Shown here: positions 5,172-59,150 of the stretch, in pieces | How the letters are laid out: the number at the start of each line of letters is the position of its first letter | Position numbering within the stretch: the stretch's first letter is position 1 | Assembly (NCBI GenBank): GCA_951406725.2 | Contig: OX597834.1 | Coordinates: 7,750,001-7,814,000 of the forward strand | DNA length: 64,000 nt | Direction: 5' to 3' | Source: Octopus vulgaris | Lineage: Eukaryota | Notes under the pieces: model-generated | Database searches by the model: none | Seen by the model: only the letters and a program-made list of their open reading frames with translations | Told to the model about the DNA's origin: nothing | Position numbers and translations under genes: made by a program

Positions 5172-5221
<50 letters not shown>

Positions 5222-5224
<3 letters not shown>

Positions 5225-5381
5225 GAGTGGCTGTGTGGTAAGTAGCTTGCTAACCAACCACATGGTTCCGGGTTCAGTCCACTGCGTGGCATCTTGGGCA
5301 AGTTTCTTCTGCTATAGCCCCGGGCCGACCAATGCCTTGTGAGTGGATTTGGTAGACGGAAACTGAAAGAAGCCTGTCGTA

Positions 5382-9815: not shown

Positions 9816-10234
9816 ACTGGGACACAACAGAATTGTTCCTGCGCCGGATTTAGGATGGTAGAATTCTTGCAAGTGACAGCTTCTTACAAATAGGAATGAA
9901 ATGTCGTTGAATATTTCCATTTCTTCACGTTGCTGCCGCTATAAGTAGAAAATTTCTTTATGTTGTTAAATGTGATTTATTATCAAATGAATTTTTAATC
10001 AGTTATTTCATCTTCAACATTGATACCTTCGTATATTGTGAGTTTTGCAAAAGAAGGTTCAGGGAGGAATTGTTGTTTGGTTGAACTTAAGACACTTAAG
10101 GTTGTGCTAGGCCTTAAATCTGCATTACAATCATCATTACACAAATGTGGATCTAACAAACGAACGTCTCAGATTCGCAAATGAGTTGGATCACAATTAT
10201 ATTCAGGATAAACTACCAGTAAAAAAAAAAGTAT

Positions 10235-10648
10235 CTTGCTAACCAGCCACATGGTTCCGGGTTCAGTCCCCCTGCGTGGCATCTTGGGCAAGTGTCTTCT
10301 GCTATAGCCCCGGGCCGACCAATGCCTTGTGAGTGGATTTGGTAGACGGAAACTGAAAGAAGCCTGTCGTATATATGTATATATATATATATATGTGTGT
10401 ATATGTTTGTGTGTCTGTGCTTGTCCCGGTAGCATTGCTTGACAACCGATGCTGGTGTGTTTACGTCCCAGTCACTTAGCGGTTCGGCAAAAGAGACCGA
10501 TAGAATAAGTAATGGGCTTACAAAGAATAAGTCCCGGGGTCGATTTGCTCGACTAAAGGCGGTGCTCCAGCATGGCCGCAGTCAAATGACTGAAACAAGT
10601 AAAAGAGTAAAGAGTAAAGAGTAAAGAGTAAAGAGTAAAGAGTAAGAG
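10235..10648 (+). mobile_element. SINE family A, 5'-truncated, (AAAGAGT)n tail
   Basis: Near-identical to 5222-5660. Confidence 0.9.
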
Positions 10649-13681: not shown

Positions 13682-14427
13682 CATTAGGTTATATAACGGT
13701 AAATGTCGTTAATCGAAGGGATGGTCATTATGACATGAAGGTCTGCTAGATTAATGCCGAACTATAACTAAACATTAGTCGCAACAGCATCGACCATAGA
13801 ATATTGGGCAGTGAATACAAAGATACAATTGATATCGATGTCCCCGAGTTTATATTACTATACAAATTAGAATGCACACAAAGGCTTTAATTGAGACATT
13901 ATAAAGAGATAAAAGAATGCAAAAATTATTTGAAAACTCAAAAATATCATTAATGCGCACACAATACAAAAAAATTTATACATATATACACGACGTTTTG
14001 TTTGGATTTCTTAATTCAATACTGCATACATAAGATACTAAGAAACATTTGTATAGTGTGTTGATGCTGTAGGATAAAAACACTTTCACATAACATTAAG
14101 AGTTAGTACATGAAGATATATTATATAAACTGACATAGAAAAATGGAATACATGTTTTTCAGAATGTAGCTGAAAAGGTAAGAATGTACACAAACATATG
14201 TATTGAATTAAAAAATATAGCTTCAAAGAAATGTATTAAATAACATATTTTAATTGGTACACAACAGAAAGGATATGCAATTGTTTCCTAAGGAACATCG
14301 ACATTAATAATATTTGAATATATATTATTCACAAACCTTGAAAATTTCATGTGTCCAATGTCAATATAAATCCTCTTGAAGAAAGAAAAAAAGTCTTGAT
14401 ATATTTCTATTAATGAGACACAAGCCT

Positions 14428-14890
14428 CAAAATATAATGGTTTCAAATTTTGGCATACGGTCAGCAATTCCGGGGAAGGGTAAGAGTGTCATACTACTGA
14501 TTATAGACAATTGCTTCTAAGAATTGTCCCTTCAGAAATTCGCTACTGCTGTCGCTGACGTGTTTGATCTCTGAGAAAGTCGTGTTAAGCAACATTTACG
14601 GGGTCCCTAATATCTGTAATATTAATGTTTCAGAACTCTGATGTCAGAGTTCCTATTCAAAATATAATGGTTTCAAATTTTGGCGCACGTTCAGCAATTC
14701 CGGGGGAGGGTTACACCGTCTTACTACTCATTATAGACAATTGCTTCTACGAATTGTCCCTTAAGAAATTCGCTACTTCTGTCTCTGACTTGTTTGATCT
14801 CTGAGAAAGTCGTGTTAAGCAACAGTTACGGGGTCCCTAATATGTGTAATATTATCGTATCAGAACTCTTGTGTCAGAGTTCCTATCCAA
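14428..14890. repeat. Tandem duplication, ~230-bp unit x2
   Basis: caaaatataatggtttcaaattttggc... starts at 14428 and again at 14658; the units align throughout. Confidence 0.9.
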
Positions 14891-24748: not shown

Positions 24749-25070
24749 GACTCCAAATTTGCCATCAAGATGTAGGACAAGATACTGTGATAGCCTGGGC
24801 TTCCGAGGCCCACAGCTCTTCAATATCCTCCCGAAGAACCTAAGAGACCTGCATGGGGTGGATGCAGATGTCTTTAAAATGAAACTGGATCTCTTCCTGT
24901 CAGGTGTCCCAGATGAACCAACTTCACGGCAGGAGGTGCAGATGAGGGCTGCTGCATCGAACTCTCTCATGCACCAAATGGCAGTTGCTAAAAAGCTTTC
25001 GTGAAGTAAAACCACGTAGCAACACCAAATGGCGGTGCCCCAGCATGGCCACAGCTCATGAGCTGAAACT

Positions 25071-32774: not shown

Positions 32775-33780
32775 GTATGAAAAGAGGTATGTTTGTTTGT
32801 TAGAAACAGCTTCTACTTCAGCCATCTATATATTTCCGAGAGTTTTATAAACGTTTTTTTTTATCCACTTTATTATTAGTCCTCGTGTTGTTTTCTTCTT
32901 TTATAAGTCAATTCTTTGGTTCCGCCCATGTTTCAAGACATTTCCCGTGTTATCTTCTGGCGAGATGAAACGATATTAGCGCCAACTATTATTGCCTTTT
33001 TTCTTTTCTTTTACAGTAGACATTTTTTTAATAGTTTGTTTCTCATTCGTTATCATTGATGTATGTTTCTTATTCAAATTGTTGACATCATCTGTCTTTC
33101 GGCAATCACGGAATAATGCTGACGTGATGTTTGTTCTTATTTTCTTGCTAAGATTAACTTCCATAATAAATCTTCAAGTTTTTACTTTCTGCTCGACAAA
33201 ATATAGTTGTTTTATCAACTGATGTTTGATTGATATTGTATGATATACTGCGTTACAATGTCTTCTTTCTGAATGAGTAATATATTAAGAGAAATGTACA
33301 ATTAAATCTAATCTTGCTTGCAAGCCATACTATAAAGCATACAAGATCAACGACCTTTAGTTTACCAATTCAGATATAAACTAGGATCATTACACTTCAT
33401 GTTATTAATTCATACAATGGCGACATACCTTACGACACTTTTTTTTATAATATACTAATCAGTACTGAAGGAAACCTCAGCAGACAATACCCGATTATCT
33501 CTGATGAATTTTATGTCGACTAATCCACTCTAAGTAATTATGTATTCGACTGTGTCATCTTCAGGCGATTATCTCCAGATTTTGTTATCGTGGTGGAATT
33601 TGCACAAAACGCGTGGAGTAAATACTGGAAACCAACATGTCCGATGTTGCAAAAATGTCGGCAGTTCATCGCTTTAGACTAGTATTTTATTTAGCGTTCC
33701 AGAACGAATACAAAATAAGTAAAAGACGTCTTTAATGTAGTTTTCGTGAAATGAATCGGTGTCAAAACTGCATGTGTTAT

Positions 33781-34186
33781 AGGCGCAGGAGTGGCTGTAG
33801 TAAGTAGCTTGTTTACCAACCACATGGTTCCGGGTTCAGTCCCACTGCGTGGCACCTTGGGCAAGTGTCTTCTACTATAGCCTCGGGCTGACCAAAGCCT
33901 TGTGAGTGGATTTGGTAGACGGAAACTGAAAGAAGCCCGTAGTATATATATATATGTATGTGTATGTGTGTGTGTGTTTGTGTGTCTGTGTTTGTCCCCT
34001 AGGATTACTTGACAACCGATGCTGGTGTGTTTATGTCCCCGTCACTTAGCGGTTCGGCAAAAGAGACCGATAGAATAAGTACTGGGCTTACAAAGAATAA
34101 GTCCCGGTGTCAAGTTGCTCGATTAAAGGCGGTGCTCCAGCATGGCCGCAGTCAAATGACTGAAACAAGTAAAAGAGTAAAAAGAG
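33781..34186 (+). mobile_element. SINE family A, full length
   Basis: Head-to-tail match with other copies. Confidence 0.92.
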
Positions 34187-47634: not shown

Positions 47635-50262
<2,628 letters not shown>

Positions 50263-51519
50263 GACGACTGTCTCGTAAAAGGGACTCCTAATAACAAATT
50301 GTTGTTTTGGGGGTGATGACGACGACGACGACGACAACGATCACAATGATGACGCAATGACAAGGCGTTAATAACGATGAAGATGATTATGATGTTAATA
50401 ACGATAACATCAAAAAAACATCTCCGTTACCCTGTGATAGTAACGAACAGAAACATGACGACCAAAACCGAAAGAAAAAAAATGATGAATTACTAGGTGG
50501 ACCAAATATGCGCTAGGCTTTATTTTGGCGTGCATACAATCTTGTGGGAGCTTTTCTGGCCCAGGGAGTCAATTAAAATATTGATGAGATGATTATGTAA
50601 CAAGAACAAAATCACAGTACATAATTCCATTATTCAACATCGAAGCTATTGCAACATGTCTTGGTATTTTTTTCTGTTGGTGAAATATTTTCTGTTTTAT
50701 TCCTCGTTGGGTTGGTTATTTAGTGGCTGGGTGCTATTGAGACGAGTATTAGGAAAGTGTTTTGTTTTCATTTGTTCAAAATAATTGAGAAGCAGGAATA
50801 CAGCTTAGTTTAACCCTTATCAAAATATTTATGAATATGCATGGATAGTCAGAATAATATTTCAATTTAGAATATTTCTCTTATCGAAGAGTATCATCTG
50901 TGTGTGTGCGTATGTGTATATATATGTATTATTTTTAGTTGTTCTTTTTCAATTATATTCTTTTTATTTTTTTAGTTTTATATATCTGCATATTTTGAAG
51001 AATGCATCATAACGGTTTTTCATACAGTAGAGCAACGCAAACATTCACAGATCTTTTTTTTTTTACTGAAACAGGTTCGCGTCTACGTTGAGCTGTTGTG
51101 CTTCACTTACACTTTGCAATTGAAGATAAAATTTTTGATTTCATTGGCAATAATCATTGTGCATGTAGATGTATAACAATAGGTGATCTTCCTATCTCTG
51201 CTTGCTCATTGCTTCGGCAAACTGATGTACAAATGTTTTATTTTTTTCCCGTCCATTATTTGCCAGGAACATTATACATCTAACCAAATTTATTCAACTT
51301 CTTTCTTTTTATAAATTATTATTGCGCGATATTTTGGGAGAGGTTTCGCCGATATTTCTAACTGACAAAGTCCCAAACTTAGTAAATATGAAAAACCATT
51401 AATGAGGGATAATTTTCGCACACAATTAATTTTTAAACAATTTGTTGCTGAAATATCTGTTACACTTGAAAAGTAGAATGTTTGATGTCCTTTGACCGTC
51501 GCAAGCGTAGTTCTTTGAT

Positions 51520-51830
51520 AAGAAGCTTGCTTCACAACCACATGGCACCTCCGGAAAGTGTCTTCTACTATAGCCCCGGGCCGACAAAATCTTTCTGAGT
51601 GGATTTGGTGGACGAAAACTACTTGTGTGTCTGTATTTGGCACCCACCATTGCTTGACAACCACGTCTGGTGTGTTTACGTCCCCGTAACTTGGTGGTTC
51701 AGTTAAAGATACCGATAAAATAAGTACTAGGCTTAAAAGGAATAAGTGTTGAGGTCGATTTGTTCGACTAAAAGCGGTGCTCCAACATGGCCGCAGTCAA
51801 ATTACTAGAGCAAGTAAAAGAATAAAAGAA
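51520..51830 (+). mobile_element. SINE family A, diverged and internally deleted
   Basis: gtgtcttctactatagccccgggccgac...ggtgctccaacatggccgcagtcaa. Confidence 0.8.
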
Positions 51831-54557: not shown

Positions 54558-54592
<35 letters not shown>

Positions 54593-54754
54593 AATATAAG
54601 AGAGTGGTCACTATATTGCTCACTCTAGCACCAGTTAATCAATAAAATATTATAATAAAATATTATAATAATCCAGGTTTCTCGTAGCACTAGGCCACTT
54701 GGTGTTGAATAAATATACTATTAAATTAGTATCTAATTCTCTCACCCTTATTAA

Positions 54755-54807
<53 letters not shown>

Positions 54808-55736
54808 TATATAGATTAATATATATTTTGTGACTCGTTAGCACAATTGGTAAAATACCTAATATTATGTAATCCGCCTACATTACTGTAGGCAATATAT
54901 CTTTTGTTAGTGGTTAATTTTCATCGTAACATACGCATAAACTGTGTGTTCATGTGTACTGATGGTGCACTGTATTCTACATTCCCTAATCAGTTCATTT
55001 AAGAATTATCTTATGAATGATCAGCAAACGTCCATGAAAAACATTACTCTTTCATTCATTCCAACACATATGTGTTAAGACTACTAATATACCAATAAAT
55101 ATATAATTAATGCATCGATACATAATTAATACACTCAGCAGTAATTTACAGATATGGCATTTAGAGAAAATTGTACACCTAAAAATTGTTTAAACAAATA
55201 TATATTCATCTGTGATTAGAAGTGAAAATGAAGCGCTCTTTTAAAAGCTTTTATATCTATCCACGTTTATTAGTGCAGAATTTGTACGGTAATTCCTGAA
55301 AGTAGAATATTCTATGGCGTAAATAATTGGAAATATACTTTATGGATTTCTATAGTTCCTTTTTAATTAGAACATCACTTCTAAGTTAAATTAATTATGT
55401 TTGACATTATTTTTGACCCGGTTACATTGCTTTGAAGATGTTAATCAGATATGTTTCAATATTGATTTGTGTGACTTAGAAAAATATTACTTTAGCAATC
55501 GAATGCGGATATTCTGCTAAAATTAGTCCAAAAGTATCACTGTTATTTTTATCAGTCGTAGTATCATTTGGTATCTTTAATATAAGTGTATAAAGGATTT
55601 AATAATGAACAGTTCGTGAAACACTATGCCTTTATTTCACTTCTGCTATGTCTATTTTAATATGAGAGTAAGATGCGTTATAAAAGTATTATACAGTACA
55701 GTATTATAAGGAGTTATCCCTTAAGATTATCATGTT

Positions 55737-55950: not shown

Positions 55951-57614
55951 TTTATTACATCTTATTAACAGAAAAATGTTAGTCCCGAAAACGTTACAAA
56001 CTTTCTGAGAGAGATTTGGAGAAAGGATGAATGGAAGTCAACTCATGTTGATGCAGCATGGAGCAGCTTCACTCAGATTGATTTTTAAATGGAGCCTTAA
56101 TCTTAGAGTTTTATCGTTGGGTTTGGAAACGGAAACCGTTGGAATGGTTTACGATTTGTGTCACACATCTTATTAAAATACTAATTCCACTACTGTTCTG
56201 TTTTTAACTCCAACTGATCTGAGATCAAGATGCATTATGAGCAATATGCTTCCAATGTCGTCCATGTAGCTTTGTCCAACCAAACTTTTCTTATGCCTAT
56301 CGAATGTGACTTTCTTTTCTCAGAGGGTTAAAATAACACAAGTGAAATTTGGCGGCTCTCTACAATAATTCACGCAAATTCCCAGAGATTCCCCTGTTGA
56401 TGCCGTTATTGCTGCGCTGTGTTATTTATTGGAGTTCAAGGCGGCAATATTTCTTACACTCTCTGACATATATACTTGTGGAGCCTATTTCCTTTTCCCA
56501 TTCCGTAACCGTTATTACAGCTTTCTTCAGTCTCTTGCCAAATGATGATTGCAATAGAAATAAACGTCCCACAAACAAAAACCCAAAAGAAAAAAAAAAA
56601 CAAATGCTAAAACGAAGAAATGTCGAACATTGTTAAATTTGAAAGAGTTATATTGAGAATTAAAACTTAATATTCTTAATCTAATTAGTAATACCATATT
56701 TTATACCTCGAGCGTACAGAAGTTAGGTAAATGCAATTATATGGCGATAAATACAAAATATATTAGTCAATGATAAATGTAATTTAAATTATTTAGACAA
56801 ATGTGGCAAGCGTGTTTTAGCTTTATTATACCTAACCCTGTAGAGCGTACATCATTTTACGTGAAGAGAAGCGTTACACATTTAGAATTTGGAGTTTAGC
56901 AAATTGAAAGTAGACGGAAATTGGAAATCAGCCATGGCTGTCCGCTGATTTCTTTAAATACTGAAGAAAGAAAATATATTGCCCCATCATATGAGGAACT
57001 GGCTGAGCTTTGATAGTGTTTCATGAAATACTTAGCCGTAATTCTGCCGACCTTTTCTGTTCAGCGTGCAATTTCAGTCAAAGATGAATTTATTTTCCGA
57101 CTTTACGGGATCGATAGATAAATTAGCGATTAAGGTGGCGATCGACTTGTGGTGATATTATCATTTGTGATGATATTTATTTGAGCTCTTTGAGTTCAAA
57201 TCAAATCGTAACGTATAAAATTTCCTCACCAGAATTAACACTTGAATTATAGTCGAAGTCTTTTCTGCCTAGATCTCCAGAGTTCCTTTCCACTAGTTTC
57301 AGAGAGTATGGCAAGGGTCACGGGCATTCTGCCTTCTCCAAACTAAATACAAGGTGTGTTCGGTGCTTATCTATATAAAAGAGAGAACAAAATTTATAAA
57401 CGAAAATTAAAAACGTGATGAAGAGAAATAATCCTTCGAACATTAGATCAAACCTACTCCACAGAGGAGATAAAGCACACATTCTAATTAATCAGAACTA
57501 ACTAAAAGAAGAATATAGTCAATAGAGTGAGGGGTGTGTCTTATCTAAGCTGTATAATGAGATCTGGATCAAAACGGGGTCTTATTTCTTCACTGTATAT
57601 ATATATATATTTCC

Positions 57615-58324
57615 TTCCGTTAAATGTATGTTGATTCTAGTTGGAAAAATCTTTTTTCTGTGCCTTTACTATCGGAGCTATTTTTAGCACTAGAGTTATC
57701 CACATAGTGGTTAACTCTCTAATAATTTATGTATAAATTTGTATTTTCTCCGTAGTTTTTTGTGCTAAGCCACTCGGTGTTAAATTAATGGTATTATTAA
57801 ATTAATATCAATTTTTCACCCTCATTTATAAATTTATAAATTTAACTATGCGGCAGTAAATATTTTATTTGATGCGGCATACGTTTCCAATTGAGTCTTG
57901 GCATGCTTTTGGCGCGGAATTTGAGGCATAACTAAAAATGCAATTCGTTAAACCGCTCGTGTTTTTGACGCTCGGGTCGGTCTAATTAATTGTATTTAAG
58001 ACAAACCTCTGCTGAAGATTTATAGATGTGTATGTAAGTAAAACTACATATTACATTAGTAATGAAACAATTTGTTCAGGGTCAATCTATTTATTCGTTA
58101 TATTTCACTTTCTTTCCGTTAAATGTATGTTGATTCTAGTTGGAAACATCTTTTTTCTGTGGCTTTACTATCGGAGCTATTTTTAGCACTAGAGTTATCC
58201 ACATAGTGGTTAACTCTCTAATAATTTATGTATAAATTTGTATTTTCTCCGTAGTTTTTTGTGCTAAGCCACTCGGTGTTAAATTAATTGTATTATTAAA
58301 TTAATATCAATTTTTCACCCTCAT

Positions 58325-58330
<6 letters not shown>
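57615..58330 (+). mobile_element. Retrozyme/PLE-like partial tandem: ~499-bp unit x1.4 with HHR, embedded in (TA)n
   Basis: 57615-57831 is repeated almost exactly at 58114-58330; HHR in the spacer; (TA)n on both sides. Confidence 0.75.
58007..58081 (+). ncRNA. Type I hammerhead ribozyme motif with long stem II
   Basis: ctctg CTGAAGA ttta..tatgta agtaaaac tacata..taat GAAAC aattt GTT caggg; GUU triplet. Confidence 0.65.
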
Positions 58331-58394
<64 letters not shown>

Positions 58395-59105
58395 TGCATT
58401 TTCAGTCTCATTCGTTTTCAATTTCTTGTATATTGCTTTATCTTTGTAATCCTCCATCCTACACAAGCCTGAACTTACTTGTAGTAATAGCGGTTCTCTC
58501 GTATGTTTTATATACCATGATATCTCGTTTTCTTCTGATCCAGTGCAGTGTTCGCATTCAGTAAGTCCTCTTTCCCCACTTTTCTTTGGTTCATATAGTC
58601 TGTCTGTGTCACTTTTTGGGCGGAGTATCTCATATCTATTTAGCAACATCCTTGTCTTTCTGTCTAAGCTGTTTAGTTCGTCTTCTGATCACACAAGTAC
58701 CCCTGCTCCATATCCAAGGAGTGAAACCGCCCAGGTGTTGATAGTTTCAATCTGATTCCGGCCAATTACTTTCGACTTAAGTGTCAGTCTCAGTCTGCGC
58801 AAGTACTCCATCTTAAAATTTTCTGTTATTTCTTTCTCCATCAATTTATCCATTTCCAAAACCCCCAATCACATATGACCCGTCTCTTCTATCTTCCTCA
58901 TGATCTTTCCCGACAGTATCGATAGCCCGTCCACACATTTAATTTTGCCTCCTTCCAAGACTAACTCACCACAGTTTCTCAGTCCAAACTACATTCCGAT
59001 ATCAGTACTGAAAGTATACACTGTATCAACGAGGGAACTGACTTACGCTTCATCTTTACCATAAAGTTTGAGATCATCCTTGAATTTAAAAAATGGTTGA
59101 TTTTT
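58395..59105 (-). mobile_element. R4/Dong-clade LINE RT fragment, decayed
   Basis: FKDDLKLYGK..SLVDTVYTFSTDIGM*FGLRNCG ... LDRKTRMLL...RPKSDTDRLYEPKKSGERGL; homologous to 42605-43207; 5' side lies near the (TAA)n-type tract at 59148. Confidence 0.85.
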
Positions 59106-59147
59106 GTTGGCGGTTCTTGAAAACATACTTAGCTTTTGCCTTCCCCT

Positions 59148-59150
59148 ATT

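Follow-up and report, generated by a model that had tools for sequence, protein, structure and literature searches.

The 64-kb stretch of Octopus vulgaris DNA analysed here (the window) holds, at 57610-58330, an insertion that is probably a copy of a multi-copy, non-autonomous Penelope-like element, a non-LTR retrozyme that uses the borrowed enzyme of an autonomous partner. With retrozymes, this element shares a non-coding unit of low GC content, one type I hammerhead motif, many copies, head-to-tail junctions, and a unit predicted to pair with itself. With non-autonomous Penelope-like elements, it shares a partial tandem (a pseudo-LTR), a fixed 3' end combined with variable 5' ends, and insertion into (TA)n. 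A first-pass annotation, made from the letters alone, had proposed a non-coding, hammerhead-bearing unit of this kind with a Penelope-like footprint. The depth of the unit in public sequencing runs, its junctions, its 5' ends, and the 3' end that it has in common with a second copy at 54.7 kb bear that proposal out.

Retrozymes and their link to Penelope-like elements are, of course, already in print, and the octopus element adds one more such element; in itself, therefore, it is unsurprising. Our search of the open-access literature (with subscription papers, Repbase and Dfam outside its scope) found no report of a retrozyme or hammerhead family from an octopus or any other cephalopod. The broader interest lies in the step in which a circle serves as template, which is still treated as hypothetical in the texts of PMC7229834 and bioRxiv 10.64898/2026.07.22.740005. 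Here, the family is useful in being young, in having many copies and a sharp 3' end, and in including insertions of more than one turn: a census of its copies can tell a circle from a tandem transcript.

The insertion and its flanks

The insertion is organized around a direct repeat with a period of 499 bp (Table 1). The first-pass annotation had seen 217 near-identical base pairs, and the two segments (57615-57831 and 58114-58330) do differ at only 3 of 217 positions. The repeat in fact reaches farther. At 58113, all of the contig depth, in 4 of 4 public runs, carries the letter that stands at 57614. The fourth mismatch, 57614/58113, is therefore a change in the second copy, and the start of the repeat moves to approximately 57610. 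Thus extended, the repeat is 222 bp long with 4 mismatches, and the insertion comprises 1.44 turns of the unit (721/499).

The same annotation had reported no long reading frame across the unit and (TA)n at both sides, and each observation stands. The longest stop-free frame has 56 codons, whether one reads the element or three joined units, and a frame scan of the element found no ORF encoding a telomerase-like reverse transcriptase with a GIY-YIG endonuclease. As called from the sequence, the TA run on the right extends over 58326-58391. Because TA runs lie at both sides, a target-site duplication cannot be read. The window as a whole is AT-rich and dense in microsatellites.

Table 1. Positions in the window of the insertion, its predicted structural parts and the related fragment.
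Feature	Position	Strand	Remarks
Diverged (~80%) 3' fragment of related element	54681..54758	+	3' end as in the insertion; (TA)n run 54760-54826
Left (TA)n flank	57596..57609		7 units; part of likely target microsatellite
5'-truncated upstream turn, pseudo-LTR-like	57610..57831	+	222 bp; copies 58109-58330; 4 mismatches
AU-rich junction hairpin (predicted)	57824..57841	+	7 pairs, mean probability 0.85; forms only across unit junction
Single full 499-nt non-coding unit	57832..58330	+	31% GC; predicted branched rod, ~67% of bases paired
Predicted type I hammerhead	58000..58083	+	descriptor match and fold prediction
Hammerhead stem I	58007-58011/58077-58081	+	5 bp
Hammerhead core	58012-58018	+	descriptor
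Hammerhead stem II, long	58020-58062	+	opens with U-U mismatch 58019/58063
Hammerhead GAAA	58064-58067	+	descriptor
Hammerhead stem III	within 58000..58083	+	2 bp; 5-nt near-palindromic loop
Predicted cleavage site, GUU triplet	58076/58077	+	descriptor
Long predicted helix arm closing ribozyme domain	58097..58147 with 57883-57932	+	mean pair probability 0.94-0.99 per helix
3'-terminal hairpin (predicted)	58275..58319	+	kept in diverged 54.7-kb copy
Right (TA)n flank	58331..58391		~30 units

Copies of the unit

Parts of the stretch were found in 20 of the 24 public sequencing runs listed, which carry four coded organism labels; none of them held half of its words. Four runs (including X1, X5 and X8) were aligned to the locus at 80% likeness, with X1 and X5 being DNA runs. 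To the left of the (TA)n flank, contig depth is approximately 47 (47.2 in X1, 45.7 in X5). Over the 15 bins of 57646-58305, summed contig depth, which is not a copy number, runs from 8,931 to 107,382 in X1 and from 13,059 to 193,542 in X5. The lowest bin of the unit stands at about 190 times the depth of the flank.

The bins that cover the two unit junctions (57822-57865 and 58086-58129) have depths of 30,983-59,612 in the two DNA runs, and a single 420-nt contig from X8, running from 57780 to 58205, spans both. Because both junctions are deep and one contig crosses the two of them, the ORF-free unit is taken to be the common form.

This bears directly on the alternative that fares best, in which the unit belongs to a coding Penelope-like element as its pseudo-LTR or 5' UTR, truncation or rearrangement has left the locus as a remnant, and no ORF-free family spreads alone. 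Hammerheads do reside in pseudo-LTRs (PMC4209133), and most Penelope-like insertions are 5'-truncated. Further, 24 of the 283 loose-end rows are listed, and exits into an ORF could be hidden among the other 259. Against a coding parent, however, stand the two deep junctions with the contig that joins them, the lack of any frame longer than 56 codons, and the long predicted helices in which the sequences flanking the ribozyme pair with each other inside a single 499-nt unit. On balance, we consider it improbable.

Of the 283 loose-end rows, the 24 listed include other 5' ends, which follow TA-rich letters at 57705 (found again as 58204), 57771 and 57777. In the run alignments, which skip the TA run on the right, the readable ends are those on the left. 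A contig from X1 matches the left junction of the insertion itself (57250-57701, with 1 other letter and 11 gaps), and X1 may be the sample from which the window came; a flank contig from organism C ends at 57577, short of that junction. The 3' end recurs in the fragment at 54.7 kb (blastn E 8e-11; nhmmer E 8e-4; an alignment scoring 79.5, where the highest of 300 shuffles reached 44); the fixed 3' end is thus a property of two copies, both in the window.

Around that fragment (54590-54760), the first hairpin, at about 54601-54626, resembles the hairpin at 58191-58217, and by eye the fit is better when it is inverted. An inversion of this kind would, to the eye, resemble the inversions known from the 5' ends of Penelope-like elements. 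A metagenome scan with the 3'-end motif returned 2 loci in GC-rich DNA of bacterial type; with only 22 bases matched, these were set aside as chance.

Contigs over the unit also come from X8 and X15, runs guessed to be RNA, one of them lying across an uncut hammerhead site. No expression is read from these, because high-copy DNA gives the same result and contigs show neither ends, nor strand, nor circles. Besides one strand switch, X8 and X15 gave no splice-like or back-joint rows, in contigs that drop rare forms.

The neighboring reverse-transcriptase-like fragment

Adjoining the right TA run, on the minus strand at 58394-59150, is a broken reverse-transcriptase-like frame with several stops, which we take to be of the Dong/R4 type. 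Dong/R4-like elements may favor microsatellites as well. A Pfam search of the frame gave no family, and its first matches in the Atlas are eukaryote clusters at 0.97. Contig depth is 44,000-82,000 over 58394-58481 and only 400-1,300 in the next bins; this end is possibly a very abundant short derivative.

The presence of this fragment directly beside the TA run favors a second alternative, a hammerhead-bearing, SINE-like element mobilized by a LINE, for example by the neighboring Dong/R4-like family. Dong-R4 is reported to be active in Octopus vulgaris (PMC13282606), and LINEs are kept among the possible mobilizers in the text of PMC7229834. The partial head-to-tail layout, however, is the footprint of Penelope-like elements (PMC8557442, PMC8969392). 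Further, neither blastn nor nhmmer found any likeness between the unit and the neighboring fragment, and ARAGORN found no tRNA gene in the window. A SINE-like element is likewise improbable, and we rank it behind the coding parent.

The predicted hammerhead

A descriptor search of both strands of the 64 kb found a single type I hammerhead motif, where 30 shuffles of the window averaged 0.07 each; the descriptor was composed after the motif had been seen. The first-pass annotation had given one hammerhead to each unit; the type I motif is there, but there is one in all, and it lies outside the repeated part.

Every part of the type I core as defined in PMC3088659 is present: C3 U4 G5 A6 N7 G8 A9, then G12 A13 A14, the pair A15.1-U16.1, and H17. 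Three stems can be drawn, with stem I open. Position 10.1-11.1, however, is U-U, stem III has a pair probability of 0.20-0.26 in the unit, two pairs of stem I have probabilities of 0.04-0.05 in the folded unit, and the ribozyme region folded alone does no better than its shuffles (z -0.8). U10.1-U11.1 is found in natural hammerheads (PMC3088659). Rfam at its gathering score gave no match of any family in the whole window. With E up to 10, it gave 8 matches in 57500-58450 (7 to the TA run and 1 to a weak snoRNA), none of them a hammerhead. The missing Rfam match counts against a hammerhead, though it is no defining biochemical feature.

Loop III has a predicted self-pairing energy of -4.1 kcal/mol, and a short palindromic helix III is described as a mark of hammerheads active as dimers (PMC4209133). 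A variant found in one contig each of X1 and X5 has a GUA triplet and a perfect 4-nt palindromic loop III. Its two stem I changes still pair with the 5' strand of the 57610-58330 copy, the variant's own 5' strand being outside the contigs. As modeled, the hammerhead is atypical and likely weak as a monomer; efficient cutting would likely require a dimer, and thus loci of at least two units.

The position of the single hammerhead in the unrepeated part has a simple consequence: the insertion locus cannot itself release a 499-nt monomer or circle running from cut to cut. A source locus would have consecutive units with two complete hammerheads, and 57610-58330 does not, with one hammerhead in the window. 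The search for two-hammerhead loci elsewhere covered short contigs, and none was seen among the pieces listed. Scans of viral and prokaryote contigs for the hammerhead motif found none.

Hammerhead loop II contains, at 58035-58040, what we take to be a perfect 5' splice donor consensus, and at 58238-58255, 220 nt farther downstream, there is a tract of pyrimidines that ends in AG. The contigs of the four aligned public runs, which drop rare forms, held no spliced form of the unit. Penelope-like elements have 5' UTR introns near the hammerhead (PMC4209133, PMC8557442).

Fold of the 499-nt unit

Folded as a circle, the unit has a predicted energy of -127.1 kcal/mol, compared to -89.0 ± 6.0 for 60 dinucleotide shuffles, none of which came so low (z -6.4). 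For the opposite strand, z is -3.5. In the long helix arm that closes the ribozyme domain, the majority letters of other copies at 57926 and 58113 convert G-U pairs into standard pairs.

The 3'-terminal hairpin has 15 pairs. In a comparison of three sequences only, 1 of these pairs is changed on both sides, 2 are changed on one side, and 3 are broken in one of the three sequences; we infer that the hairpin is a candidate recognition signal for a reverse transcriptase. A distance of 254 nt separates the predicted cut from the 3' end of the element (58330, equivalent to 57831), which lies farther downstream, inside the loop of the junction hairpin. On this model, the loop is likely to be the start of reverse transcription.

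The other copies also allow the fold to be compared within the family. Of the 117 difference rows, 40 are listed, and 11 of these are deep rows in the unit; they supply the majority letters, with 57975 dropped as a majority in one DNA run only. Jointly, the ten others lower the predicted energy by 10.2 kcal/mol. Random sets of changes matched in type raise it by 7.5 ± 5.3 kcal/mol, and 0 of 150 such sets was as good. Singly, 6 stabilize, 2 destabilize, and 2 are near neutral, the gain coming mostly from 57951 and 57946. Where the two turns disagree (four positions), the letter that folds better, by 1.9-5.4 kcal/mol, has survived in one of them every time; each copy has undergone two of the changes. 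This pattern of mismatches and majority letters would fit a structured unit that decays after insertion, and the plus-strand fold is predicted to be stabler in the family than in the 57610-58330 copy. The regained self-complementarity is, of course, that of a more palindromic founder and alone is no proof of selection on RNA.

When the unit is opened at 50 points, the linear energies run from -124 to -134 kcal/mol, and the ribozyme cut is not a preferred opening. Folding therefore cannot separate a circle from a tandem template.

Upstream of the ribozyme, we take 57887-57891 to be a CCAAT box, about 57907-57916 to be an E2F-like GC motif, and 57943-57947 to be an inverted CCAAT (majority letters of other copies). 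With these motifs, 57885-57950 would be a possible polymerase II promoter of the cell-cycle type; the same bases lie in predicted helices, and chance is the alternative. A sigma-70 scan, which applies a bacterial promoter model unsuited to animal DNA, gave 4 sites where 4.8 were expected.

Both the fold and the ends of the copies bear on a third alternative, a satellite-like unit multiplied as DNA by unequal crossing-over or extrachromosomal circles, its hammerhead being an idle inherited relic. The several weak features of the hammerhead would suit this, and unequal crossover has been proposed for the tandem growth of retrozyme arrays (bioRxiv 10.64898/2026.07.22.740005). However, copies that share a 3' end while beginning at various points in TA-rich flanks suit reverse transcription instead, and it is the ribozyme strand that is predicted to fold more stably. 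We judge the satellite to be very improbable. Last, a single local duplication that carries a hammerhead-like motif by chance, to which the absent Rfam match could be credited (the first-pass annotation had itself named local duplication as a rival), is ruled out by a unit depth at least ~190 times that of the flank, as well as being opposed by a motif expected 0.07 times per shuffled window and by the related second copy at 54.7 kb.

Proposed mechanism of insertion and the template question

For the preferred reading, a non-autonomous Penelope-like element, the following steps are proposed. A master locus with at least two units would be transcribed. The GIY-YIG endonuclease of the presumed autonomous partner would nick (TA)n, and the reverse transcriptase of that partner would bind near the 3'-terminal hairpin and start internally, in the AU-rich loop of the junction hairpin. 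Copying would then proceed backward over a complete unit, continue for 222 nt into the adjoining one, and stop there, leaving a pseudo-LTR. After insertion, the locus would decay.

Apart from the missing ORF, the anatomy of the insertion corresponds at every step to that of a Poseidon insertion. Penelope-like elements in general display 5' truncation, partial tandems (pseudo-LTRs), and a bias toward microsatellites, including (TA)n (PMC8557442, PMC8969392). In the reconstituted Poseidon of Anolis, nicks are AT-rich and priming is internal, in a stem-loop downstream of the hammerhead; ribozyme mutants inserted like the wild type, and cleavage was not needed (PMC11167929).

What kind of RNA was copied is a separate question. 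The first-pass annotation had inferred a circular or multimeric RNA, with reverse transcription going around it more than once. The 1.4 turns favor neither a circle nor a linear tandem transcript. A partial tandem is no proof of a circle, because it is the usual Penelope-like footprint and is made also by hammerhead-free elements (PMC8557442). Retrozymes of coral, mussel and axolotl form circles (PMC7229834); in Xenopus, 1 of 9 predicted retrozyme dimers was cleaved (bioRxiv 10.64898/2026.07.22.740005). The ranking that follows is the author's estimate, for options that the data do not separate. An uncut tandem transcript is a more likely template than either a circle or a monomer with a jump, its own chance being not quite even. 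The ligated 499-nt circle comes second as a serious possibility, and a monomer with a template jump is unlikely.

A bolder reading, which we consider doubtful, is that this is the first cephalopod retrozyme family, dispersed in hundreds to thousands of copies, and that these are the record of a 499-nt RNA circle around which a Penelope-like reverse transcriptase rolled, always starting from the same hairpin loop. Were the circle real, private changes common to both turns would mean that the same RNA base had been read twice, and genome data alone would settle whether retrozymes move via circles. Double-stranded RNA in octopus is, as background to such a census, heavily edited from A to I.

Comparison with known systems

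The pDo500 family of Dolichopoda crickets has, as its name implies, a unit of about 500 bp. Like the octopus element, it is an animal repeat family with a hammerhead; unlike the short dispersed insertion in (TA)n, it is satellite DNA (PMC2837043, PMC2808323).

The metazoan non-LTR retrozymes described by Cervera and de la Peña (2020; PMC7229834) are closer. They too have a non-coding, low-GC, highly self-paired unit with one type I hammerhead and many copies, and there also Penelope-like elements are proposed as mobilizers. Their units, however, are ~170-400 nt, compared to 499 nt, and they occur as dimers and multimers, where the octopus element has 1.44 turns and one ribozyme. Circular RNA was demonstrated for them, whereas the octopus element is known from sequence alone. 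The long stem II that opens with U-U is a feature of the octopus element.

In the wider set of animal retrozymes from Li, Clavereau and Pollet (2026; bioRxiv 10.64898/2026.07.22.740005), sampled from vertebrates, insects and a coral, sizes of 51-972 bp include the 499-nt unit. Dispersed copies of the monomer type are common there, an origin from pseudo-LTRs is described, and animal retrozymes are argued to be non-autonomous Penelope-like elements. The class called 'active' in that work has two consecutive units with complete hammerheads, and the octopus locus falls outside it.

Poseidon PAc of Anolis carolinensis (Frangieh et al., 2024; PMC11167929) resembles the octopus element in ending at an internal stem-loop past the hammerhead, in its AT-rich targets, and in its partial tandems. 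It differs in being autonomous, with an RT/GIY-YIG ORF. Its priming falls ~85-92 nt past the cut (cut at +26, start at +111 to +118) in AC-rich sequence; the corresponding distance in the octopus element is 254 nt, and the sequence is AU-rich. Also ORF-free are MRC1 and other non-autonomous elements of the Chlamys type (Craig et al., 2021; PMC8557442), with pseudo-LTRs, head-to-tail insertions, and a microsatellite bias. These come from green algae, however, and as described there mostly have no canonical hammerheads.

Age of the insertion

The two turns differ at 4 of 222 positions (1.8%), or 0.9% per copy (95% range 0.25-2.3%), which agrees with the fairly young insertion first suggested by the high identity of the repeat. 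For octopus, a distance of 0.09 corresponds to 25 million years (PMC13282606). On this scale, and assuming no gene conversion, the age of the insertion would be ~2.5 (0.7-6.4) million years.

Other features of the window

Other repeats were noted in passing. On the plus strand, 24750-25001 is a C-terminal fragment of a LINE ORF, with 3 protein matches at 67-87% identity to reverse transcriptase (PF00078) domains. An interspersed repeat with similar spurious translations, presumably an octopus SINE family, has several copies (~5220-5380, 10213-10581, 33691-34041 and 51290-51796). At 14427-14890, a 230-bp unit forms two tandem copies with 90% identity, and the descriptor gave no hammerhead in it. 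Finally, a (CAT)n array of ~870 units occupies 2.6 kb at 47636-50262.
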